DNA from: Dehalococcoidia bacterium
Lineage (GTDB): Bacteria; Chloroflexota; Dehalococcoidia; Lucifugimonadales; VXLM01
Assembly (NCBI GenBank): GCA_965197705.1
Contig: OZ240223.1
Location: forward strand, 1,796,975 to 1,820,974
Reading direction: 5' to 3'
Length of the DNA: 24,000 nt
Shown here: positions 858 to 24,000 of the stretch, piece by piece
Numbering within the stretch: the stretch's first letter is position 1
Layout of the letters: the number at the start of each line of letters is the position of its first letter
Position numbers and translations under genes: made by a program
Notes under the pieces: generated by a model
Database searches by the model: none
The model's input: the letters and a program-made list of their open reading frames with translations, nothing else
Told to the model about the DNA's origin: nothing

Positions 858-2030
858 CTATGCTATCACCTTGAACTTGTAGGTTGTCGTATTGAGTTCC
901 CCCTCGGCAAACCGGGACATACGAAGCGGCGTAAAGTCCACCAGCTTCGACTCGCCGTCCAGAATCATTTCCGCCATGCAGATGCCGATAGCGGGGGCCA
1001 GCTTGAAGCCGTGACCTGAGAACCCCGTGCAGAGATAGAGCCCGTCGATGCCGTCGACCTGATCGATGATCGGGTGAAGGTCGGGCGTGGACGTGTACAG
1101 GCCGGCGTACCCGGTGAAGAGCTCCCCGTCCGCGATGTCCGGGATGCGTCGGGCGAGGCGCAGCCAGACGTCTTCGAGGTGGTCGGCGTGGATAGTCGGG
1201 CTGTAGTCGTCGGGGTCGGCGACATCCTCGGCGTTGCCGTTCCCCACCAGCGTCAGATCGGAGCCTTCCGGGCGGAAGTAGGTCAGATTCGCCATGTCGC
1301 CGCCGCCTGGATGGAAGGGCAGCCTGTCCATCGGTCTACGGATGAGGAACACCTCGTGTCGAGTGGCCTCCAAGGGGAGATCGCAGCCTAACCGGCCCAT
1401 GAAGCGTCCCGACCAAGGACCGGTGGCGATCACGACAACCGGCGCTTCGTAGCGCTCCGTGGCTGTACGCACGGCCACTACCCTGCCGTTTTCTATCTCC
1501 ACGTCGGTGACCGGTGATTCAAGGATGATCTCGGCGCCCATCTCCCGAGACCGTGCGGCGTAGGCCATCGCCGTGCCGGAAGGGTCGGCATGTCCCGACT
1601 GCGGCTCCCAGGCGTAGGACTCGCCGTCGGCGTAGTCGAACGCCGGAGCAAGCTCCTGGGCTTCCTGCTTTGAGATGATTTCCGTCTCGATGCCGACGGT
1701 CTGCTGCAGGGCAATGTTGTGCTTGAGTCCCTCGTGCGACTCCTCCGGGACGAAGACCATGTAGCCCGTGTGCACGAACCCACAGTCTCCCCCACCGACC
1801 GCATCGTCCCAGTTGCGGAAAATCTTCAGGCTCTCCCAGGCGAGATGGGCGTTGACGGTCGTGGAGTAGTGCATCCGCACGGCGCCGGACGATCGGCCCG
1901 TCGAGCCGGAGCCGAGCGTGTCTCTCTCCAGCAAGACGGGAGACCGCACACCGCGCGACACCAGGTTGTAGAGGATGCTCGTTCCCATGACTCCGCCGCC
2001 AATGATGACAGCGTCCGTTGTAACCGTCAT
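858..2030 (-). CDS. FAD-dependent oxidoreductase (DAO family; sarcosine oxidase beta / glycine oxidase-like)
   Basis: N-terminal Rossmann dinucleotide motif DAVIIGGGVMGTSILYNL and DAO-like length. I prefer the ATG at 2030 (MTVTTDAV) because AGGTGAGAAGG lies just upstream; the track start at 2057 has no RBS. Confidence 0.8.
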   Translation of the reverse strand: MTVTTDAVIIGGGVMGTSILYNLVSRGVRSPVLLERDTLGSGSTGRSSGAVRMHYSTTVNAHLAWESLKIFRNWDDAVGGGDCGFVHTGYMVFVPEESHEGLKHNIALQQTVGIETEIISKQEAQELAPAFDYADGESYAWEPQSGHADPSGTAMAYAARSREMGAEIILESPVTDVEIENGRVVAVRTATERYEAPVVVIATGPWSGRFMGRLGCDLPLEATRHEVFLIRRPMDRLPFHPGGGDMANLTYFRPEGSDLTLVGNGNAEDVADPDDYSPTIHADHLEDVWLRLARRIPDIADGELFTGYAGLYTSTPDLHPIIDQVDGIDGLYLCTGFSGHGFKLAPAIGICMAEMILDGESKLVDFTPLRMSRFAEGELNTTTYKFKVIA

Positions 2031-2135
2031 TGCCTTCTCACCTTGCCCGAATCCCATTGTCGTCGCATGGTGCGACGTTCGTTCCGATATAATACCCGAC
2101 CTATCCCATCAGTGCGACACGTAGGGAGGTAGGCG

Positions 2136-3236
2136 TTGGAGTTCACAATCGCGGTCTTGCCGGGGGACGGCATCGGGCCTGAGGTCATCGGCGAGGCGGT
2201 CAAGGTGCTGGATGCGGTCGTCGAGCGGTTCGGGCACCGGTTCGAGATGCAGTCGGGGCCTATCGGCGGCGGCGCTATCGACCGGTACGGCACGGCATTG
2301 CCCGACGAGACGCTTGAGGCGTGCTACGACGTCGATGCGGTGCTGTTCGGCGCGGCGGGCGGCCCGAAGTGGGACGTGGCCGACGCCGAGGAGCGCCCTG
2401 AGCAGGGCATCCTCAGGATCCGGCGCGAGTTCGGGCTGTTCGCCAACATTCGTCCGGCGAAGTCGCACCCTGCCCTCTATGCGGCGAGCTCGCTGAAGCC
2501 GGAGTACCTCGAAGGCGTTGACCTAATTGTACTGCGAGAGCTGATCGGGGGACTCTACTTCTCTCGACCGAAGAAGCGGTGGGCGACGAAGACGGGGAAA
2601 CGGCGCGGCATGGACACGCTGAAGTACAGCGAGGAGGAGATCGCCCGTGTTGTCAGGGTAGGTTTCGAGCTGGCCAGAAGTCGTCGCGGCAAGCTGGTGT
2701 CCACGGACAAGTTCAACGTGATGGAGTCTTCCCGGCTGTGGCGAGAGGTCGCCACGGAGGTCGGGGCCGAGTATCCCGACGTGGAGCTGGAGCACATCCT
2801 CGCGGATAACCTCGCCATGCAGCTGCTCCGCAACCCGGCCCGATTCGACGTGATCGTGGCAAACAACATCTTTGGCGACCTGCTGTCCGACGAGGCCGCC
2901 ATGCTGACCGGTTCGCTGGGGATGCTTCCGTCCGCGAGCCTGGCGGAACCGCCGGGCATCGACGGCAGCGGGAAGCGCCTGTTCGGTCTGTACGAGCCTG
3001 TACACGGCAGCGCGCCGGACATCGCGGGACAGGGAATAGCAAACCCCGTCGGCGCGATCTACAGCACGTCGATGATGCTGCGGTACTCGCTGGGCCTCAA
3101 TGAGGAGGCCGATGCCGTAGAGCGCGCTGTCGAGGGCGTCCTGTCCGAGGGCTACTGCACGCCGGACCTCGCCCGAGGAGGCGGGACAGTCATAGGCACG
3201 CGGCAGATGGGCGACCTGATTACAGGCAGCTTGTGA
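2136..3236 (+). CDS. leuB: 3-isopropylmalate dehydrogenase
   Basis: IAVLPGDGIGPEV, GGPKWD, FANIRP, VLRELIGGLYF, NIFGDLLSDEAAMLTGSLGMLPSASL and YEPVHGSAPDIAGQGIANP are classical bacterial LeuB motifs. TTG start with GGGAGGTAGG RBS. Confidence 0.9.
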   Translation: MEFTIAVLPGDGIGPEVIGEAVKVLDAVVERFGHRFEMQSGPIGGGAIDRYGTALPDETLEACYDVDAVLFGAAGGPKWDVADAEERPEQGILRIRREFGLFANIRPAKSHPALYAASSLKPEYLEGVDLIVLRELIGGLYFSRPKKRWATKTGKRRGMDTLKYSEEEIARVVRVGFELARSRRGKLVSTDKFNVMESSRLWREVATEVGAEYPDVELEHILADNLAMQLLRNPARFDVIVANNIFGDLLSDEAAMLTGSLGMLPSASLAEPPGIDGSGKRLFGLYEPVHGSAPDIAGQGIANPVGAIYSTSMMLRYSLGLNEEADAVERAVEGVLSEGYCTPDLARGGGTVIGTRQMGDLITGSL

Positions 3237-5948: not shown

Positions 5949-6351
5949 TCCTTCCCCCGCCGGGGGAAGGATAAGAGGTTGAGACATTCCCCCGGCGGGG
6001 CTGACTGGGGTAGACATTTGACTATCGACTCACTCTCCAATGATGAGAAGGCAACCCGGTCACTGTCATTCTGAGCGCAGCGCAGTCGAAGAATCTAAAG
6101 AGTCTGTCACAACGTAAGTCCAACATAGAGCGTTCTTACCCTGTTCTCACTCTCGGTCACGATACAAGCGCTGCACCGGCTGTCCGGTCTTGCGGTTATG
6201 GATTTTAGATTCCTCGCTGCGCTCGGAATGACAGAAAACTGGGAGCCGGATCATAGCTGTAGTTTCGTTTTACCTACCCCTGTCAGCCCCGGCGGGGGAA
6301 GGATAGAAAGTTGATAGTCCTGCCCCGTGCGGGAAGGATACGAGGTTGGGG
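5949..6351. repeat. Cluster of nested inverted and direct GC-rich hairpin repeats (REP/MITE-like)
   Basis: Three direct copies of a hairpin-plus-purine-tail module lie at 5955-5983 (cccccgccgggggaaggataagaggttgag), 6287-6317 and 6323-6351. An outer inverted repeat pairs 5987-6013 with 6274-6300 (25/27 matches). An inner inverted repeat pairs 6063-6099 with 6204-6234 (ctgtcattctgagcgcagcg...gaatctaaa, with a 6-nt indel). Confidence 0.8.
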
Positions 6352-6385
6352 TTTTCTCCCTCATACTCAGCTACTCAGGGGAATT

Positions 6386-6892
6386 CTAGTGAGAGGGGTG
6401 GCCGCGCCAGCCCTGGAGCATTTCGAGGCCGTGCGTCAGGGCTGTCAACGCGACCTCAAGGGTCTCGCGGACTCCCTTGGGGCTGCCCGGCAGGTTGACG
6501 ATGAGACAGCCGTTGCGGACGCCGACGACGGAGCGACTCAGCATGGCCAACGGCGTGATCCGCATCGTCTGCGACCTCATGGCCTCTGCGATGCCCGGAA
6601 CCTGGAACTCTACAACGGCGGCGGTCGCCTGCGGGGTGACGTCGCGTGGGCCGAGGCCGGTGCCACCGGTCGTAACGATGACGTCCACTTCGCCCCCGTC
6701 GCTCCATGTGGTTAACCGTTCAGCTATCCGGTCGGCTTCGTCAGGCACGATATCGCGGTGGACAAGTCTGAACCCGCTCGCGGCCATCATCTCGACGACG
6801 GCGTCGCCGCTCGTGTCCTCGCGTTCACCCTTTGCGCCTGCGTCGCTGCTGGTGAGCACGGCGAAGCTGAATTTGTGCTCTGAATCGGTCAT
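6386..6892 (-). CDS. mog: Molybdopterin adenylyltransferase / molybdenum cofactor biosynthesis protein (MogA/MoaB family)
   Basis: VIVTTGGTGLGPRDVTPQAT, PGIAEAMR and VNLPGSPKG are hallmarks of the MoCF_biosynth domain. The size (168 aa) fits. Confidence 0.85.
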   Translation of the reverse strand: MTDSEHKFSFAVLTSSDAGAKGEREDTSGDAVVEMMAASGFRLVHRDIVPDEADRIAERLTTWSDGGEVDVIVTTGGTGLGPRDVTPQATAAVVEFQVPGIAEAMRSQTMRITPLAMLSRSVVGVRNGCLIVNLPGSPKGVRETLEVALTALTHGLEMLQGWRGHPSH

Positions 6893-7069: not shown

Positions 7070-7969
7070 GTGATTCATCACAAGCCGGTGATGGTAGATG
7101 AGGTCGTATCGGCGCTTCAGCCGCGTTCAGGCGGCGGTTACATCGACTGCACGACGGGTGAGGGCGGTCACGCAGAGGCTATTCTTGGTAACTGCGGTCC
7201 CCCTGCCCGACTGCTCGGTCTCGACTTGGACAGAGAGGCGCTCGCGGTTGCCGGAGAGCGGCTTTCCGGGTTTCGTGAGACTTCTACGTTGGTCGAGGCC
7301 AGCTATGTGAATATCGCCGAAGTCGCCGCCAAGCAAGGTTTTCTCCCGTGCGACGGGGTCTTGTTCGATCTCGGAGTCTCGTCACTCCAGCTCGAAAGCG
7401 CCTCCCGCGGGTTCGCCTTCTCGAAGGAAGCGACCCTGGACATGCGGTTCGGCCCTACCATCGGGAGATCGGCAAGGGAGATCGTGAACGAAACGGATGA
7501 GACGGACTTGGCGAATCTCATTTACCGGCTGGGCGAAGAACGCAGGTCGCGCCGGATCGCCCGGGCGATCGTCAGAGCGCGACCGGTCGGGACGACCGTT
7601 GAACTGGCTGACGTTGTAATCGGAGCGGTCGGATGGCCGAGCCGGGCTCGCAGGAGGACCCACCCCGCAACCCGGACCTTTCAGGCCCTCCGAATCGCCG
7701 TGAACGGCGAGCTTGACAACGTGGAGATGGGAATCAGGGCGGCGATAGGAATCTTGAGGCAAGGCGGACGGCTGGTGGTTATCAGCTATCACTCCCTGGA
7801 AGACCGGTTGGTGAAGAACCTGCTTCGTGAGGAGTCGAAACCGGTCGACGAGAGTCACTCCCCTGCCCTGCGACTTATAACGAAGAGGGTGATTAAGCCG
7901 GACACCGCAGAGATCGAGGCGAATCCTCGAAGTCGGAGCGCAAAAATGCGAGTGGCGGAACGATTGTGA
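7070..7969 (+). CDS. rsmH: 16S rRNA (cytosine1402-N4)-methyltransferase
   Basis: HKPVMVDEVV, YIDCTTGEGGHAEAIL, FDLGVSSLQL, FSF..EATLDMR, ISYHSLEDRLVK and NPRSRSAKMRVAE. GTG start. Confidence 0.9.
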   Translation: MIHHKPVMVDEVVSALQPRSGGGYIDCTTGEGGHAEAILGNCGPPARLLGLDLDREALAVAGERLSGFRETSTLVEASYVNIAEVAAKQGFLPCDGVLFDLGVSSLQLESASRGFAFSKEATLDMRFGPTIGRSAREIVNETDETDLANLIYRLGEERRSRRIARAIVRARPVGTTVELADVVIGAVGWPSRARRRTHPATRTFQALRIAVNGELDNVEMGIRAAIGILRQGGRLVVISYHSLEDRLVKNLLREESKPVDESHSPALRLITKRVIKPDTAEIEANPRSRSAKMRVAERL

Positions 7970-8064
7970 CGGGGAGCGGAGATCGGTCCTAGAGCGTGTT
8001 ACACGATAGAGAAGGAAAAACGACTGGCGGCATGGCAAAGCGAAACGACAATGGAGAAGCCCAT

Positions 8065-9342
8065 ATGGTGTCAGACGAGATCGTAGCTGCTATAGACGTA
8101 GGTACCACGAAAGTTTGCACTATTGTGGGCCGGAAGGTCGGCAAGAACGGTATCCAGATACTCGGTTACAGCACGGCCAAGAACTACGGCATGAGGAAGG
8201 GCGTCGTATCGGACGTTTCGGCGGCTGAGCGCGCGGTACGTGTCTCCATCAAGGCCGTCGAGGACAAGACGGGTCACAAGGTGGACTCCGCGTTCGTGGG
8301 CGTCACGGGGGCGCACGTTCGGTTTGAGAACCGTCATGAAAGGCTGGAAATCGAGAATCGAAAGGGCATCGTTACCGCCGATGACGTGGCGAGCGCTCCC
8401 AAGAAGCTAAGCGAGTCAATCGACGTGCCGGGTAGGACGGTCATCCATGCCAACTCCATCAGCTATACGCTGGACGGTGAACCGGGCATCCGGCATCCCG
8501 TTGGAATGCACAGCAAGGAGATGCAGGTAGAGGCGCATTTCGTGACGGGGTCCAACACGTTCATAGACCGTCTCGTCGATGTGATCGAAGTATCCGGCGT
8601 CAAGATAAACAGCCTCGTGCTCGAACCGCTTGCGAGCGGCCTCGCCGTTCTCACACCGGAAGAGCGCAAGAAGGGCGCTGTCATCGTTGATATAGGCGGC
8701 GGCACGACGGATATCGTCGCCTTCAAGGGCAGCAGCATCTACTACACCGGGGTCATTCCGGTCGGCGGCTTCCAGTTCACCAACGACATCGCCCTGTCGT
8801 TCAGTACACCGTTCGAGGCCGCGGAGGCAATCAAGCTGGAGCATGGAAGCGCGGAGTTTCAGCCGGCGTCGGCCGGCGAACAGATCCTCGTTCCGGTCAT
8901 CGGGCGGGACAAGCAGCTGAAGGTAAGCCGGCTTGAGATATGCCAGCTGGTGCGCGAGCGGGCTATGGAGCTCGCGCGGATGATCAAGGTAAAGCTCGAC
9001 TCGGAGCGGGTGGGGAATGGTGAGGACTCCGTCCTCGTCCTCACCGGCGGAGCATCCAATATGCCTGGGTTCGCCGACCTCGTGCAAAAGAGCGTCGGCA
9101 TCGAAGTGCGCCATGGCGTGCCGGACGTGCGTGGCACCGTGCCCGCCGAACTGAGGGACCCTGTTTACGCTACGGCGATCGGCACACTCCTTTGGGGATT
9201 GACCGAGTATGTCCCCGATGAGGCGGGCTTCGGATTGAGGAACGGGAACGGCAATGCCAATGGGCATGACTTCAAACACGCAGCGGAATCGAACGGACTC
9301 TTCGGAAGTTTGAAGCGCCGGCTTGGCGCGCTCATATCGTAG
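8065..9342 (+). CDS. ftsA: Cell division protein FtsA
   Basis: Actin-fold motifs AIDVGTTKVCTIVG and VDIGGGTTDIVAF, with a C-terminal amphipathic tail GLFGSLKRRLGALIS. Start chosen at ATG 8065 (GGAGAAG RBS). In-frame alternatives are ATG 8032 and the track start at 7996. Confidence 0.88.
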   Translation: MVSDEIVAAIDVGTTKVCTIVGRKVGKNGIQILGYSTAKNYGMRKGVVSDVSAAERAVRVSIKAVEDKTGHKVDSAFVGVTGAHVRFENRHERLEIENRKGIVTADDVASAPKKLSESIDVPGRTVIHANSISYTLDGEPGIRHPVGMHSKEMQVEAHFVTGSNTFIDRLVDVIEVSGVKINSLVLEPLASGLAVLTPEERKKGAVIVDIGGGTTDIVAFKGSSIYYTGVIPVGGFQFTNDIALSFSTPFEAAEAIKLEHGSAEFQPASAGEQILVPVIGRDKQLKVSRLEICQLVRERAMELARMIKVKLDSERVGNGEDSVLVLTGGASNMPGFADLVQKSVGIEVRHGVPDVRGTVPAELRDPVYATAIGTLLWGLTEYVPDEAGFGLRNGNGNANGHDFKHAAESNGLFGSLKRRLGALIS

Positions 9343-16317: not shown

Positions 16318-16586
16318 ACTTCTTCGCTACCTTCATAAGCCTGTTCCTCACTGCCCTGTCGCTGGCGATACTCGCCCGCGTAATCATGTCGTGGGTGACC
16401 ATGTTCGCTCCCGACTCACCGATCGTCAAAACGATCAACGACATGCTCAATCAGATGACGGAGCCCGTCCTGGGACCGCTGCGCCGGGTGATTCCTCCAA
16501 TGGGCATGTTCGACCTAACCCCGATGATCGCCCTGATCCTGCTGCAGGTCATACAGGTATACCTGGTGCCACGTCTCCTATCCTAG
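16314..16586 (+). CDS. yggT: YggT family membrane protein
   Basis: A 90-aa, two-TM protein with LARVIMSWV...PVLGPLRRVIPPMGMFDLTPMIALILL. The TTG start overlaps the proC stop (TTGA). Confidence 0.8.
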   Translation: MNFFATFISLFLTALSLAILARVIMSWVTMFAPDSPIVKTINDMLNQMTEPVLGPLRRVIPPMGMFDLTPMIALILLQVIQVYLVPRLLS

Positions 16587-16702
16587 TACTCAGTCAACTT
16601 GAATATGACGAGTTGGCAGATGTCGATTTATTCCCTCTCCCGTCGTGGGAGAGGGCTAGGGTGAGGGTAAAACGTAATATCAAAACCATGTTGACATGGT
16701 AC
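16586..16702. mobile_element. 117-bp MITE derived from the neighbouring IS630-family element, flanked by TA
   Basis: The left end gtactcagtcaacttgaatatgac matches the reverse complement of the IS right end gtaccggttcaacttgaatatgat, with a 15-nt identical core. The right end is catgttgacatggtac. TA lies at 16584-16585 and 16703-16704. The core carries the hairpin ccctctcccgtcgtgggagagggctagggtgagggt (16633-16668). Confidence 0.7.
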
Positions 16703-16765
16703 TAGAACCGAAATCTTTGAAATGACGGGTAGTACTAGGGGGTTGGGGTTGCGTTCTGCAACAAC

Positions 16766-16786
16766 AGGCGGGTTTCAAACCCGCCT
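16766..16786. repeat. Perfect palindromic hairpin repeat
   Basis: aggcgggttt c aaacccgcct has 10-nt perfect arms. It resembles a widely scattered bacterial hairpin repeat, by recollection only. Confidence 0.6.
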
Positions 16787-16837
16787 CTACCAAGTCATAG
16801 TCTCGTCACCCTTAAATACTATGGTGTTGAACCACTA

Positions 16838-18068
16838 GTTCCGGTTCCGCATGTATTTGACAAATATAAGAAGTAGGTTAGTATTATGTATGATCCTATA
16901 GGGAGGACATACGAAGACATGCCTGCTCTCAAGTACAAGGTGGAGTTGAACGAGTCGGAACGGACACATCTCAAAGAGATAGCGAGTCGTGGGGAGACTT
17001 CGGCCCGTAAGGTCAAGCGAGCGCTGGTGTTGCTTAAGGCAGACGAAGGTCTGATCGACCGTGACATCGCCAGCGGACTATTGATAAGCGCATCCACGGC
17101 CGGACGCGTGCGCACGCGGTTTGTGAAAGAGGGGCTCGACTGTGCGATCAATGAGCGGGCGCGCCCGGGACAGAAACGCAAGTTGGACGGTAAACAGGAA
17201 GCGCATCTGATAGCCATTGCGTGCAGCGATGCACCCGATGGACACGCGGACTGGACGCTGCAACTCATTGCCGACAAGGCGGTGGCGATGGGGTTTGCCG
17301 AGAGCATCTCCCTCGAGACGGTGCGCCAGATACTAAAAAAAACAAACTCAAACCGTGGAAGAAGAAGGAGTGGTGCATCCCCGAAGTGAGCGGAGAGTTC
17401 GTGGCTCGAATGGAGGACGTGCTGGAACTGTACCATCAAGACTACGACCCGGACCATCCCGTGGTCTGCTTCGACGAGACATCCAAGCAGTTGGTGGCTG
17501 ATAAGAGGCCCGCTATCAGGGCCAAGCCGGGTCGGGTGGAACGATATGACTACGAGTACAAGCGAAACGGGACACGAAACCTGTTCATGTTCTGTGAACC
17601 GAAGGGCGGATGGAGGCACGTCGAGGTGACCGAGCGCCGTACTGCCGTAGACTTCGCTCATCAGATGAAATGGCTGGTTGATGAGGCATATCCTCACACC
17701 GAGACGATACGGCTGGTGCTGGACAATCTCAACACTCACAAGCTGGGTTCGTTGTACGATGCCTTCGAGCCAGCCGAAGCGCGGCGTATAGCCAAGCGCC
17801 TGGAGCTCCATTACACTCCGGTACACGGCAGTTGGCTGAACCCCGTATCGAGTACGGGGCGGGCTATGGCTGAGATAGAGCTGAGCGTCTTGAGCAACCA
17901 GTGTCTTAACCGTCGAATCAGCGACGAGGTGGTACTGAAACGAGAGGTCTTGGCGCTGGAACGTGAACGCAATGAGGCTGTCGCCATCATAGACTGGCGC
18001 TTCTCCACTCAGGACGCTCGCACTAAACTTCAACATATCTATCCATCATATTCAAGTTGAACCGGTAC
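16838..18068 (+). mobile_element. IS630-family insertion sequence (1231 bp) with TA target duplications
   Basis: Imperfect terminal inverted repeats: gttccggttccgcatgtatttga at the left, and gtaccggttcaacttgaatatga as the reverse complement of the right end. TA lies at 16836-16837 and 18069-18070. The element encodes an HTH plus DDE transposase. Confidence 0.85.
16886..18060 (+). CDS. IS630-family transposase, two frames joined by a -1 slip at the A8 run 17335-17342
   Basis: Frame 0 ends ...ETVRQILKK then TNSN... Re-reading one A gives ILKKNKLKPWKKKEWCIP, continuing into ORF 17221-18060 (VCFDETSK, YEYKRNGT, LVLDNLNTH, HYTPVHGSWLN..MAEIE). It is either programmed or transcriptional slippage, or an A9-to-A8 frameshift mutation. 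Confidence 0.8.
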
Positions 18069-18089
18069 TAGGGTAGAAGGACAGCGAGG

Positions 18090-19768
<1,679 letters not shown>

Positions 19769-19772
<4 letters not shown>

Positions 19773-20351: not shown

Positions 20352-20418
20352 TCCATACCAACCTCCCCAGCCTCTGTCGAGACGTTGATACTCTGTTGAG
20401 GGAGAAATAACCACGGAC

Positions 20419-20580
20419 CCGCAGCCCGACGACGGCATCCCCTTCGAGGACAAGATGTCCCGCCTCGCCACCCAATGGCGCGAGCAGCAGACCGAGGCGC
20501 AGCAACTTGACGCAGCCATTGAAGAGAACCTCAGGGACCTAGGGTTCGGTTCAAACTTAGGCGATACAAGCTCCAAGTGA
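20419..20580 (+). pseudogene. Orphan duplicate of the hsdM 3' end (last ~53 codons)
   Basis: 20419-20490 is identical to 19617-19688. It then continues in frame as a diverged tail TEAQQLDAAIEENLRDLGFGSNLGDTSSK*. An in-frame stop at 20386-20388 lies upstream and there is no start codon. Confidence 0.85.
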
Positions 20581-20653: not shown

Positions 20654-21997
20654 ATGACGGTGGGTAACTTCATGGAGCAGGTTGAAACAGTTTACGGTTT
20701 GGTCTCTTCTAGACTTGCTGAGGCCTCTTTAGGGAGCCTATGCGACAATCGTGATGGCATCCAAACAGGGCCTTTTGGGAGTCAACTCCACCAACGGGAT
20801 TATGTCGAAGAAGGGACGCCCATCATAACTGTGGAGCATCTAGGCGAGAATCGCATCACTCAAGAAAATATGCCGTTCGTTTCGGACCACGATAGGCAAA
20901 GGTTGCAGCGATATACCCTCCGTGAAGGCGACATCGTCTTTAGTCGTGTCGGCTCAGTTGACCGACGTGCCCTTGTAAGGCAAGCAGAAGACGGGTGGCT
21001 ATTCTCGGGACGTTGTTTGCGAATGAGACCGGACGACAGCAAGATCGACCCTACCTACTTGTCTTATTTCTTCGGGTTGCCGGCTTTCAAGGAATACATC
21101 AGATCCATTGCGGTGGGCGCAACGATGCCGTCTCTGAACACTAGGATAGTGAGCGACGTATCGATCCTTTATCCTCCCCTGCCCCAACAGCGCGCCATCG
21201 CCCACGTCCTCGGCACACTCGACGACAAGATCGAGCTAAACCGCCGGATGAACGAGACGCTGGAGGAGATGGCGCGGGCGCTCTTCAAGTCGTGGTTCGT
21301 AGATTTCGACCCGGTTCGCGCCAAGTTGGAGAGCCGCTGGCGCCGCGGCGAGTCCCTCCCCGGCCTCCCCACTGACCTCTACGACCTCTTCCCCGACCGT
21401 CTGGTTCCCTCCGAGCTTGGGGAAATCCCGGAGGGGTGGGAGATTGGGACTGTCGGGGATGTTGCAGAACAGCGCAGAGACGGAGTGAGTCCAGAATTAC
21501 TTGACCAGGATACTCCGTACATTGCGCTTGAACACATGCCCAAGCGCTGCATTGCGCTTGGGGACTGGGGTTCGGCTGATGGCCTAGCCAGTAGTAAATT
21601 CAGATTTGAACAAGGCGACATCCTGTTCGGGAAGTTGCGTCCCTATTTTCACAAGGTCGGCATCGCTCCGTTGAATGGGGTATGCTCAACAGACATCGTT
21701 GTGATATCACCACAAGAGAATAGCTGGTTCGGTTTCGTCCTCGGCCATGTATCGAGTTCGGCCTTCGTGGACTACACGGATGCGGCTTCGACAGGAACCA
21801 AAATGCCTCGAACCAAGTGGGCGGACATGGCTCTGTACAAAGTTGCTCTACCGGACTCAGCGGTGACCAAAGCCTTCGACGCAATGATTAAGCCGTCGGT
21901 TACGGGCATTCTGTCGACAATCCATGAATCCCACTCCTTAGCTGCCCAGCGGGATGCACTGCTACCGAAGCTGGTGTCGGGGGAGGTGGGAGTATGA
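20654..21997 (+). CDS. hsdS: Type I restriction-modification system specificity subunit
   Basis: Two target-recognition halves separated by the conserved coiled-coil spacer PLPQQRAIAHVLGTLDDKIELNRRMNETLEEMARALFKSWFVDFDPVR. The C-terminal conserved repeat is LAAQRDALLPKLVSGEV. An alternative start is ATG 20672. Confidence 0.9.
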   Translation: MTVGNFMEQVETVYGLVSSRLAEASLGSLCDNRDGIQTGPFGSQLHQRDYVEEGTPIITVEHLGENRITQENMPFVSDHDRQRLQRYTLREGDIVFSRVGSVDRRALVRQAEDGWLFSGRCLRMRPDDSKIDPTYLSYFFGLPAFKEYIRSIAVGATMPSLNTRIVSDVSILYPPLPQQRAIAHVLGTLDDKIELNRRMNETLEEMARALFKSWFVDFDPVRAKLESRWRRGESLPGLPTDLYDLFPDRLVPSELGEIPEGWEIGTVGDVAEQRRDGVSPELLDQDTPYIALEHMPKRCIALGDWGSADGLASSKFRFEQGDILFGKLRPYFHKVGIAPLNGVCSTDIVVISPQENSWFGFVLGHVSSSAFVDYTDAASTGTKMPRTKWADMALYKVALPDSAVTKAFDAMIKPSVTGILSTIHESHSLAAQRDALLPKLVSGEVGV

Positions 21998-22815
21998 GGA
22001 AGATGGACCTTGTGGGAATTCGCGCAAAGCTCCTCCGAGCAGAGCATCAATTGAAACAGATCAAAAGTGAAGCGAATGGGCTTTGCTCGGACGTGCAGCA
22101 CGGCATTGTTAGAGAAGTGCGCCCGGACGTTGACAAACAGGTCTGGGTGTATCGTGGTGAGACGCCTAATGCCCCTATTAGGTGGTCAGTGATCATTGGC
22201 GAAATCCTGTACAACTTGCGCTCCGCTCTCGATCACCTAGTCTGGCAGTTAGTGCTCGCCAATGGACAAACTCCGGGACGCCATAACGCATTTCCAATCA
22301 CCAATGACGCTCAGGGTTGGGAGAAGACTAAGGATAATCTTCTAAACGGTGTCAGTTCAAGACATAAGTCCATGATTGGTTATCTACAACCATATACCGG
22401 AGGAATTAATCTCCCCTTCGATGTTTCCAAGTTCAAGCTCCTAGACGACCTCAGCAACATAGAAAAACACCGATATCTGATTGTAGCGTTCATAGCTTCT
22501 ATGGGACCTGCTAACGATGGAATCCTTGGGATCGACCCACCCGAGCTAGTTGATTCGAGCGTAGGAGCGCCATTCGAAGGATTAGCTAGGTTGGGGAAGA
22601 TTGAGAATGGCAAAGAACTGCTCGAATTCAACAATTCACACATAGAGGTCAGTAGCCCTTCCTTTCAAATCGCCCTCTGCTTCGCAGATAAAGAATTGAT
22701 GTATAGCTCTGCCCCAAATATCCTGGCGCAGTGTCTGCGCACGGTTAGAGGATCTATAGACTTTCTCACGACTCCTATGAGTAGTGGCTTTGTGGAAGCA
22801 CCAGGCAGAACTTGA
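21994..22815 (+). CDS. Hypothetical protein, 273 aa, with an Rx4H (HEPN-like) motif; family not recognised
   Basis: The ATG overlaps the hsdS stop (ATGA), with a GGGAGGTGGG RBS upstream. The motif is IIGEILYNLRSALDHLVWQLV (R76-x4-H81). G+C is lower than the flanks by eye. The coding call rests on ORF length, coupling and RBS. Confidence 0.7.
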   Translation: MRKMDLVGIRAKLLRAEHQLKQIKSEANGLCSDVQHGIVREVRPDVDKQVWVYRGETPNAPIRWSVIIGEILYNLRSALDHLVWQLVLANGQTPGRHNAFPITNDAQGWEKTKDNLLNGVSSRHKSMIGYLQPYTGGINLPFDVSKFKLLDDLSNIEKHRYLIVAFIASMGPANDGILGIDPPELVDSSVGAPFEGLARLGKIENGKELLEFNNSHIEVSSPSFQIALCFADKELMYSSAPNILAQCLRTVRGSIDFLTTPMSSGFVEAPGRT

Positions 22816-23033
22816 CTACCCTCACCGAAGCCGACGTTGAGGAGGTCACCCTCGAGTGGCTGGCGCACGGTCGGACCATCGCCACAACCTTACGATCAGA
22901 CGCTCCATTAGGTTGCAATCTGACGCACCCTAACATTGCAATTGGCCGAAGCATAAGGTTGCAATCGGACGATGCAGCCGACTCCGCCATATTCCCGCTA
23001 TGCCGAAGGGCCGCTGGTGGAATCTCTGGCTGA
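22812..23033 (+). pseudogene. Remnant hsdR 5' end (first 18 codons are HsdR-like, the rest unrelated)
   Basis: MTTLTEADVEEVTLEWLA (22812-22865) parallels MTSITEAVVEEAALAWLA at 23930-23983. After codon 18 the similarity is lost. The TTG start overlaps the upstream stop (TTGA). Confidence 0.55.
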
Positions 23034-23181
23034 CTCCCCGGCGGTGCTCATCCACGGGCCCCGTGAGTCCGGCAAGACCACACTGGCCCGTGTCGTAGGA
23101 GATCCTCGGGGATACGACTACATCAGTTTTGACGACGACATCGCCCGGACCGCTGCCACCTTGCGTACCCGTCCGTTATAG
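22972..23181 (+). pseudogene. 5' fragment of an AAA-type ATPase (AAA_14/DUF4143-like), truncated after ~60 aa
   Basis: YAEGPLVESLADSPAVLIHGPRESGKTTLARVVG (Walker A) followed by GYDYISFDDDIARTAA. Full-length relatives, as I recall them, are about 400 aa. This ORF ends at 23181, inside the palindrome that precedes the antitoxin gene. Confidence 0.5.
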
Positions 23182-23199
23182 TCTAATGTAGACTATAAC
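23175..23199. promoter_or_regulatory. Perfect 11-bp-arm palindrome, candidate operator/promoter of the Phd/PIN operon
   Basis: gttatagtcta atg tagactataac is AT-rich and lies 22 nt upstream of the antitoxin GTG at 23221. Confidence 0.5.
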
Positions 23200-23220
23200 A
23201 GTTCATTGGAGGGCCAGATC

Positions 23221-23517
23221 GTGGTTGTCTCCGAACCCCGCCGCGTGTGGACGGTTGCCGAGGCGAAGGCGAAGCTGTCGGAAGTCCTGCGTCTCGCCGA
23301 GACGGAGGGTCCTCAGCGGATTGGCGCGCGGAAGCACTTCGTCGTCATGCCCGAGAGTATGTGGCGTGCCCATGCGCCGGAGCGCAAGCCCCTCGGCCGG
23401 TGGCTCATCGAGGACATGTCGCGCGGGACCAACCTCGAAATCCCCGATCGGGGTGGCGACTCCCGTCGCGAGATACCGTTCGCGGATTGGGATGACGACA
23501 ACCGGGACGACAAATGA
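23221..23517 (+). CDS. Phd/YefM-type antitoxin (VapB-like partner of the PIN toxin)
   Basis: VWTVAEAKAKLSEVLRLAETEGPQRIGARKHFVVMPESMW is a typical Phd/YefM N-terminal fold signature. The GTG at 23221 has GGAGGG 7 nt upstream; the track start is 23206. The stop overlaps the toxin ATG (ATGA). Confidence 0.75.
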   Translation: MVVSEPRRVWTVAEAKAKLSEVLRLAETEGPQRIGARKHFVVMPESMWRAHAPERKPLGRWLIEDMSRGTNLEIPDRGGDSRREIPFADWDDDNRDDK

Positions 23518-23933
23518 CCGGATTCCTTCTCGACACGAACGTGGTGTCCGAGATGACCAAGAGTCACCCCAGCCCCCCGGTTATCGCATTTCTCGAGCAG
23601 CCGTCTGATCTGTGGCTGGCGTCAATGGTAGTGCACGAATTGGAGTTCGGATTGCGGCTCGTGCCTGCGGGACAGCGTCGAGAGCGGCTGCGAGCCGATC
23701 TGTCACGGCTCCTCACTGGCTACGCCGACCGCATACTCCCGATCGATGAGGCCGCCGCGTTGTGGGCGGCACGATTTCGGGCGAACGCCATCCGCTCAGG
23801 GCGTCCCCCCGATCTGATCGACATTCTCATCGCGGGGACGGCTAAAGCCCATGATTTGACGGTTGCCACGCGCAATGTCAGGGACTTCGAGGGACTGGGA
23901 GTTGATGTCGTCAACCCTTGGAACCCCCATTGA
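23514..23933 (+). CDS. vapC: PIN-domain ribonuclease toxin (VapC/FitB-like)
   Basis: FLLDTNVVSE (first acidic residue), VVHELEFG, DILIAGTAKAHDLTVATRNVRDF and NPW; 139 aa. Confidence 0.88.
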   Translation: MTGFLLDTNVVSEMTKSHPSPPVIAFLEQPSDLWLASMVVHELEFGLRLVPAGQRRERLRADLSRLLTGYADRILPIDEAAALWAARFRANAIRSGRPPDLIDILIAGTAKAHDLTVATRNVRDFEGLGVDVVNPWNPH

Positions 23934-24000
23934 CCTCCATCACCGAAGCCGTCGTTGAAGAGGCCGCTCTAGCATGGCTTGCAGACCTCGGCTGGAGCGT
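23930..24000 (+). CDS. hsdR: Type I restriction enzyme R subunit, 5' end only (continues beyond the window)
   Basis: The TTG overlaps the vapC stop (TTGA). MTSITEAVVEEAALAWLADLGWS matches the N-terminal pattern I recall for many HsdR proteins, and hsdM and hsdS lie upstream on the same strand. Only 23 codons are visible. Confidence 0.6.
   Translation, partial: MTSITEAVVEEAALAWLADLGWS

Follow-up and report, generated by a model that had tools for sequence, protein, structure and literature searches.

The locus described here raises the question of how accessory genes enter a Type I restriction-modification (R-M) operon in which neighbouring genes overlap, and what such an entry leaves behind. 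It lies in a stretch of 24,000 nucleotides (nt) from a Dehalococcoidia bacterium (assembly GCA_965197705.1, contig OZ240223.1, positions 1,796,975 to 1,820,974), hereafter the window, and carries the 5' end of hsdR twice, at 22812 and at 23930. All genes of the locus are on the + strand, in the order IS630-like element, hsdM, MNT/HepT, a dead copy of the hsdM 3' end, hsdS, the accessory gene orf273, an ATPase fragment, a Phd/VapC pair and an hsdR start. Both hsdM and hsdS are thus encoded in the same locus and on the same strand as hsdR, and the non-hsd genes sit in the same orientation between the hsd genes of one system, as embedded cargo does. The segment 22812-22883 is, close to certainly, a dead (pseudogenised) hsdR 5' fragment, here called the stub, and we think it probable that it is a recombination scar at a slot for embedded cargo, derived from exchange between diverged hsd loci. 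The original prediction proved right in most respects.

The two copies of the hsdR 5' end

Alignment of the segments 22812-22865 and 23930-23983 revealed 41 identical nucleotides out of 54 (76%) without gaps, a value above the roughly 70% given in the original prediction, which had taken both segments for versions of one hsdR N-terminus. The latter assignment was upheld by three lines of evidence. The best local match of the last 101 nt of the window elsewhere in the window was exactly 22812-22864, with a score of 46 compared with 23.6 +/- 1.9 and a maximum of 32 in 200 shuffles (about 11.6 standard deviations above), a repeat search independently found the same 22812/23930 pair, and a nucleotide profile built from 12 hsdR 5' ends of relatives matched copy 1 with E = 1.9e-8 and copy 2 with E = 1.9e-13. 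The identical block announced for the two copies was also found, as the 12-mer TCACCGAAGCCG. Both copies open with a TTG start that overlaps the stop codon of the upstream gene, the orf273 TGA at 22813-22815 for copy 1 and the vapC TGA at 23931-23933 for copy 2; the context cTTGAc, which had been ascribed to both, is correct for the first copy while the second reads aTTGAc.

The stub (22812..22883, + strand) comprises hsdR nt 1-49 and 71-93. Similarity to hsdR had been said to end after 18 codons, but the stub picks up hsdR again (GCGCACGGTCGGACCATCGCC) after an internal in-frame deletion of 21 nt and follows it to nt 93, beyond which the DNA is not hsdR. The deletion removes the conserved SGLGW motif and, when the first 48 nt were compared with the stub of a related locus, L007, three of the four differences fell at codon positions 1-2. 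The first copy is therefore dead, as had been proposed.

Copy 2 (23930..24000, + strand) reaches the edge of the window, so that 71 nt or 23 codons of it lie inside. It matched the hsdR 5' profile at 23931-23997, and its 23 codons retain the T-E...AAL.WL..LGW pattern of the intact HsdR of locus L005, while the L007 gene in the same position is an HsdR with HSDR_N, SWI2_SNF2 and ResIII domains. Copy 2 is presumed to be the functional hsdR start; the claim that it continues as a true HsdR agrees with the profile and the N-terminal pattern and holds for these 23 codons.

Reading of the stub into the DNA that follows it gives an open reading frame (ORF) of 73 amino acids (aa) at 22812..23033 on the + strand, which is not a gene. 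When 1.84 billion representatives were searched exhaustively with HMMER, 13 matches and no full-length homologue were returned, and the ORF had no Pfam match. Four of the 13 were small ORFs of 52-100 aa that aligned to query residues 1-44 to 1-58 and then ran into unrelated C-termini; the others were larger proteins (163-5178 aa), mostly hit in several short stretches, and the two of them that were read, P0130 and P0131, hold tandem copies of the repeat element described below. Since the same hsdR stub and ATPase operator DNA is present in loci L084, L085 and L086, the apparent protein likeness is a read-through of shared non-coding DNA. The suggestion that this ORF is a scar was borne out, as the search for conserved full-length homologues came up empty.

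Related loci and their mosaic ancestry

Related loci were fetched through close relatives of orf273 (86-95% aa identity) and by a genome scan, and the family belongs mainly to uncultured Dehalococcoidia. The best match in the scan of the genome collection was 93%, exact look-ups of the window VapC and orf273 gave no match, and the vapC/hsdR junction and the ATPase-operator pattern were not found in two metagenome scans and one viral scan. In L005/L006, orf273 (86% aa identity) is followed directly by an intact HsdR of 1048 aa through an ATGA overlap, and in L009 and L032 hsdR likewise comes directly after orf273 homologues. The ancestral operon is hsdM-hsdS-orf273-hsdR, with orf273 adjoining an intact hsdR. 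Relatives in which orf273 precedes an intact hsdR had been anticipated and L005/L006 are such; no intact hsdR with a start specifically like copy 1 was found.

Besides the ancestral arrangement, five locus types showed a piece of the hsdR start after orf273, then cargo and then a second, complete hsdR start. The stub is followed by a Fic gene in L001/L020, by an eroded Fic remnant (the last bases of the Fic 3' end) in L002, by two TIR genes and an 8xMP gene in L003/L004, which come from two independent samples, by Phd/VapC in L007, and by the ATPase operator, the truncated ATPase and Phd/VapC in the window. Stub lengths in the five types were about 170-180, 75, 76, about 105-117 and 72 nt, and the breakpoints across loci were at hsdR nt 37, 75, 76, 93, about 105-117, 135 and about 170-180. 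Decay was also evident in L003, where the stub has a frameshift and stops, as it was in the window from the 21-nt deletion. No recombinase or integrase domain was detected in the 1.05-kb insert of the window or in the cargo of the relatives.

The L003 locus has the TIR and 8xMP pair at two places, in the slot before hsdR (1685-3137) and again downstream of hsdR (7866-8767); L012 also carries the pair as cargo, and in L010 a TIR gene is found downstream of the stub. In L002 (11072-14214) the live hsdR was called as two ORFs of 848 and 198 aa and hsdM as an ORF of 427 aa, which indicates either a decaying system or errors of a 15x long-read assembly.

Comparison of the loci revealed discordant ancestries on the two sides of the slot. 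Third-codon identity between the window and L007 was 0.93 for orf273, 0.69 for hsdM, 0.67 for phd and 0.35 for vapC, and between genomes it was 0.84-0.94 for orf273 plus stub and 0.35-0.69 for hsdM, hsdR and cargo. When nucleotide identity was calculated per 150 nt, orf273 gave 0.83-0.99 and hsdR 0.67-0.93 over its whole length with no switch, in all pairs tested. Orf273 and the stub of the window were about 90-94% identical to those of L007, while the adjoining cargo and live start were 70-80% identical. The recently shared block extends from the conserved region at the hsdS 3' end through orf273 to the first 50 nt or so of hsdR. The linkage of cargo and hsdR is old and that of orf273 and stub young, because the overlap of the vapC stop with the hsdR start, which is common to the window, L007 and L084, has been kept in three cassettes that are 70-73% identical in nucleotide sequence.

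The stub of the window was nearest to the L007 stub (46/51) and matched its own live copy at 39/51, a value that falls within the range of 34-47/51 found between hsdR starts of different genomes. The L007 stub, on the other hand, matched its own live copy at 87/99 with an identical run of 26 nt, compared with 58-76/99 for other live copies, and therefore within-lineage duplication or gene conversion took place there; the L007 stub and live start either interact or have a common origin within the locus. The view that the second copy came from a different hsdR lineage and not from simple duplication fits the window, and L007 points to an event within one lineage.

Fragments of the hsdR 5' end appear to be widespread. 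A search with a consensus-padded HsdR N-terminus gave more than 100 clusters of HsdR N-terminal ORFs of 39-88 aa in metagenomes. Recurrent junctions among these mini-ORFs were ...ALVVGR*, the type found upstream of Fic in L001, ...LAALHMTLAITIV and ...QPGNVYV, and fusions of the HsdR N-terminus to the HsdS C-terminal tail (...RRLRDAL|LPKLVSGEV) were also recurrent. These similarities suggest that hsdR 5' stubs are common. The HsdR-HsdS fusion ORFs were P0174, P0190, P0196, P0212, P0219, P0224, P0225, P0227, P0272 and P0277, and their joint lies at an RDAL microhomology shared by hsdR codons ~52-55 and the hsdS 3' end.

Contents of the slot and neighbouring features

A TA (toxin-antitoxin) module had been placed exactly at the gene boundary. 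The DNA between the two hsdR starts is not a single TA insertion; it was put together from at least two pieces, each with a junction of its own. The stub is followed by an operator-like region upstream of the ATPase (22884..22971, + strand), in which a repeat search found TTGCAAT cores every 23 nt. The same element of about 85 nt is joined to hsdR at nt 93 (after GACATCGCC), at the same base, in L084, L085 and L086, where the sequences beyond it are unrelated, and the junction occurs behind three different upstream genes, namely orf273, vapC and an ORF of 640 aa. In L088 the 23-nt repeats lie upstream of a full-length AAA_14+DUF4143 gene, and they are therefore the native upstream region of the ATPase gene. 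The array was located at 739-817 in L084, about 8094-8170 in L085, 6236-6347 in L086 and about 8930-9000 in L088, and elsewhere it has grown into tandem arrays that gene callers translate as repetitive proteins, such as P0130 and P0131. A structured RNA, a miniature inverted-repeat transposable element or a transposon end was ruled out for the repeats, which had no Rfam match and a folding z-score of -0.6.

The ATPase ORF (22972..23181, + strand, 69 aa) is truncated. Residues 22-62 aligned to positions 2-46 of the 129 of Pfam AAA_14 (E = 1.5e-5, 25.4 bits against a cutoff of 27), and the ORF matched positions 12-68 of the 422 of PDC-S01, a PADLOC profile for a defence candidate, with E = 2.4e-13, as expected of a P-loop N-terminal domain. 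Only 61 codons of a protein of about 400 aa survive, whereas the full-length relative in L088 continues into DUF4143. Comparison with L086 and P0135 placed the end of the ATPase homology near 23154, and the final codons of the ORF belong to the Phd cassette. The segment 23137-23154 was considered as a second piece of hsdR stub and rejected, since L086 and P0135 show DDD[IV]AR.AA there, which is ATPase sequence; its likeness to hsdR is a microhomology, GACATCGC..CCGGAC. Short queries of 51-62 aa returned from the protein search only similarly short targets and no full-length HsdR or ATPase, which is a property of the search and not of the biology, because L088 has a full-length ATPase relative. 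In L086 a graveyard of such pieces, flanked by VWA/BatA genes and a squalene-hopene cyclase gene and not part of an hsd locus, occupies 6179-6800. It starts with hsdR sequence that stops at nt 93, continues with the ATPase operator and about 95 codons of the ATPase, and closes with a further fragment of the hsdR 5' end (about nt 1-148).

The Phd/VapC cassette begins at about 23152 (GCCACCTTGCGT), the same left end as that of L007. A palindrome at 23177..23197 (no strand assigned), TATAGTCTA-ATG-TAGACTATA, is the probable operator of Phd/VapC and overlaps a promoter-like site at 23153-23182; in full it reads TATAGTCTAatgTAGACTATA, and L007 has kept it at a cassette identity of only about 70%. 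The number of promoter-like sites was at the chance level (one found, 1.1 expected), and no terminator-like site was found between orf273 and hsdR. The Phd/YefM-type antitoxin (23206..23517, + strand) matched Pfam PhdYeFM_antitox (PF02604, E = 3.3e-5, 24 bits, under the cutoff of 29.8) and is 76% identical in aa sequence to its L007 homologue. The VapC toxin (23514..23933, + strand), the stop codon of which overlaps the live hsdR start, carries a PIN domain (PF01850, 48.6 bits against a cutoff of 23.6) and is 57% identical to L007 VapC. The two genes overlap by 4 nt (23514-23517), the pair is conserved in L007 and L084, and it is predicted to be a type II TA pair. The slot thus holds an older cargo remnant followed by a TA cassette, the last gene of which is translationally coupled to hsdR.

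Orf273 (21994..22815, + strand) is an accessory gene between hsdS and hsdR, and its start overlaps the hsdS stop while its stop overlaps the start of the stub. There were 296 detectable homologues and no match to a Pfam or PADLOC family. Its GC content is 0.46-0.52 compared with 0.65 for hsdM, and it has an Rx4H motif (RSALDH) in which R76 is invariant and H81 nearly so. The AlphaFold2 model had a confidence score (pLDDT) of 85; the structure search gave no significant match, and the best matches in the PDB, several of them HEPN proteins, had E >= 1.8. The product may be a HEPN-like accessory protein, and the gene may have spread recently between Type I loci.

Upstream, hsdM (18090-19772, + strand) contains the Pfam domains N6_Mtase and HsdM_N and hsdS (20654-21997, + strand) contains Methylase_S. 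A dead copy of the hsdM 3' end (20416-20570, + strand) lies after MNT/HepT, on the other side of the hsdS-orf273 block from the hsdR stub. A repeat search gave 77% identity between 20416-20570 and 19614-19768, and the hsdM 3' profile matched with E = 1.2e-29. In this duplication, to which that of hsdR had been likened, one copy is live, before the MNT/HepT pair, and the other dead, before hsdS. Among the loci examined the hsdM 3' stub occurs in this window only. Directly upstream of hsdM is the IS630-like element (16575-18079), bounded by inverted repeats of 34 nt (16575-16608 and 18046-18079), which bears no relation to the stub junctions; its transposase is read as two overlapping ORFs, 16886-17389 and 17221-18060.

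Origin of the stub and relation to known systems

Since the stop of orf273 overlaps the start of hsdR and there is no intergenic space, an insertion that spares both genes needs a second hsdR start. When genes were placed between orf273 and hsdR, the old hsdR start would have been left behind as the stub. One end of the incoming DNA would have been joined by homology, in hsdS or in the body of hsdR, and the other illegitimately within the first 40-180 nt of hsdR. With the stub to the left of the cargo and the live hsdR start to its right, later exchange of stub and cargo between loci could make use of a homology arm at either end. The window slot has two layers, the first being the ATPase gene, of which the operator and 61 codons are left, joined to the stub at hsdR nt 93, and the second the Phd/VapC cassette coupled to the live hsdR. 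The stub itself is without function, and hsdR and cargo are presumably expressed together, with the cargo acting as a module for stabilisation or back-up defence. We favour recombination between diverged hsd loci because the breakpoints vary, the cargo has no recombinase, the ancestries of the flanks are discordant and the remnants are layered; the nt 93/operator junction found behind three upstream genes also fits an exchange through the stub. The hsdM 3' stub is compatible with a single event, in which an hsdM'-hsdS-orf273-hsdR' fragment entered a cargo-bearing locus, and also with two separate replacements of the flanks.

The same duplicated start could have arisen in place, by tandem duplication of the orf273/hsdR junction with cargo inserted between the copies and the dead copy slowly diverging, and no second hsd lineage involved. 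A neutrally evolving dead copy is expected to drift over time, and the closeness of the L007 stub to its own live copy (87/99, compared with 58-76/99 for the others) is what such a duplication would give, so that this explanation accounts better for L007 than for the window. In the window, however, the two copies are as unlike as the starts of different genomes (39/51 in a range of 34-47/51) and the stub groups with the L007 stub (46/51) and not with its own live copy. Moreover orf273 and stub are about 90-94% identical to L007 where the cargo and the live start are 70-80% identical, and therefore recombination is needed whatever the origin of the duplication. We consider duplication in place an unlikely source of the stub. 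Still less likely is that a mobile element with the start of hsdR as its target integrated site-specifically and brought a replacement for that 5' end, although the layout of displaced gene end, element and restored gene is the classic one, the repeat holds an identical block of 12 nt, and the hsdR-nt 93/operator junction is identical in four loci. Neither the insert of 1.05 kb nor the cargo of the relatives encodes an integrase or recombinase, the breakpoints depend on the locus (nt 37 to about 180) with no fixed crossover core, the cargo is wholly different between loci, and the shared nt 93 junction is equally explained by one old inherited event.

Two further explanations concern the nature of the stub. 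That 22812-23033 is a genuine small gene, for instance for a regulatory peptide with a borrowed HsdR N-terminus and with its translation coupled to that of orf273, would agree with a reading frame that is intact over 73 codons, with the overlap of its start and the orf273 stop, and with the small ORFs of similar N-terminal parts found elsewhere. We regard it as very improbable: those matches (52-100 aa) reach only query residues 1-44 to 1-58 and have unrelated C-termini, the shared DNA of hsdR stub and ATPase operator repeats accounts for the likeness, a conserved motif is deleted in frame, three of the four changes relative to the L007 stub fall at codon positions 1-2, and the product has no Pfam family. 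Chance similarity or an assembly artefact might be suspected for a repeat of just 54 nt in GC-rich DNA, but it is effectively refuted by the z value of about 11.6 against shuffles, by profile E-values of 1e-8 to 1e-13, and by the same architecture in independent assemblies and samples (L003/L004, L001/L020 and L007).

Several points weigh against recombination between diverged loci as a full account of the stubs. Donor and recipient are not separable, as cargo and hsdR may have entered an orf273 locus or an hsdS-orf273-stub block may have entered a cargo-hsdR locus, and no microhomology was demonstrated at the stub junction itself. The intact hsdR expected downstream of 23930 is predicted from the relatives only, the window stopping 71 nt into the gene. 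Three loci have cargo without a detectable stub, namely TIR-8xMP-DUF433-DUF5615 in L012, a TPR protein in L013 and a KAP NTPase with SIR2 in L015, while in L008, L010 and L031 the stub is all that is left of hsdR, beside housekeeping genes or insertion sequence (IS) elements. Stubs have therefore more than one origin, since some loci have cargo without stubs and others have stubs from IS insertion or hsdR deletion. Part of the mini-ORF signal comes from long-read assemblies in which hsdR is frameshifted, with tails such as WTTPSAS, and the loci compared are few and belong for the most part to a single clade of uncultured Dehalococcoidia.

A broader and more tentative proposal, which we hold to be possible but on balance rather doubtful, is that the first 100-180 nt or so of hsdR, as stub and live start, are portable homology arms, and that embedded defence and TA genes are recombinase-free cassettes exchanged between Type I R-M loci across genomes. 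Orf273, a possible HEPN gene, would be such a cassette too, recently swept through diverged hsd loci, and the hsdR-stub::hsdS-tail fusions would be footprints of its insertion. If this were true, it would amount to an integron-like cassette economy driven by homologous recombination.

Genes embedded in Type I R-M operons now serve the discovery of defence systems ("guilt by embedding"), and no explanation was found in the literature searched for the entry of genes into overlapping hsd operons without intergenic space. The data suggest a simple recombination route for which no dedicated mobility enzyme is needed. Stubs are datable footprints of cargo events, and the orf273-hsdR slot turns over quickly, as Fic, TIR/8xMP, Phd/VapC and ATPase genes occupy it in near-identical backgrounds. 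Dead hsdR starts could mark cargo slots and help to avoid the annotation of spurious small genes.

Integrative elements such as prophage e14 at icd and islands at tRNA genes leave a duplicated end of the gene they target and restore that gene. The present locus resembles them in having a displaced, diverged copy of the gene end on one side and the restored functional gene on the other, and differs from them in the absence of an integrase and of a fixed core, in its variable breakpoints, and in the duplication of a 5' and not a 3' gene end. Homology-facilitated illegitimate recombination, reportedly described in natural transformation by de Vries and Wackernagel and by Prudhomme et al., combines a homologous anchor with an illegitimate joint and would yield stubs of variable length beside a conserved anchor. 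That pattern is seen here, and the likeness is one of pattern only, no microhomology having been established at a stub junction.

Tsuru and Kobayashi 2008 (PMC2568036) described evolutionary units in tandem paralogues of Staphylococcus aureus that run from the 3' end of an ORF across the spacer into the 5' end of the following ORF. The hsdS 3'-orf273-hsdR 5' block seems to disregard gene boundaries in a similar way; their case, as described, concerns tandem paralogues and not R-M operons and is without dead gene ends. It is established that Type I R-M operons can harbour embedded defence and toxin genes, examples being PrrC in EcoprrI (PMC12707154) and TgvAB in Vibrio cholerae VPI-2 (PMC11411939). 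The "guilt-by-embedding" survey of Payne et al. 2024 (bioRxiv 10.1101/2024.01.29.577857) reports embedded genes in their thousands from BREX, DISARM and Type I systems; in a term search, which was limited to that preprint, hsdR, remnants, truncation and homologous recombination did not come up. As in those systems, the accessory genes of the window and its relatives (Phd/VapC, MNT/HepT, Fic, TIR, KAP/SIR2 and a PDC-S01-like ATPase) are on the same strand between hsd genes and tightly coupled to them. Unlike in the systems described, decaying remains of the hsdR 5' end mark the slot, joined in the window by an hsdM 3' stub, and its flanks are discordant in ancestry. The locus is a variant of the known embedded-cargo theme with an informative footprint, and not a new type of system.

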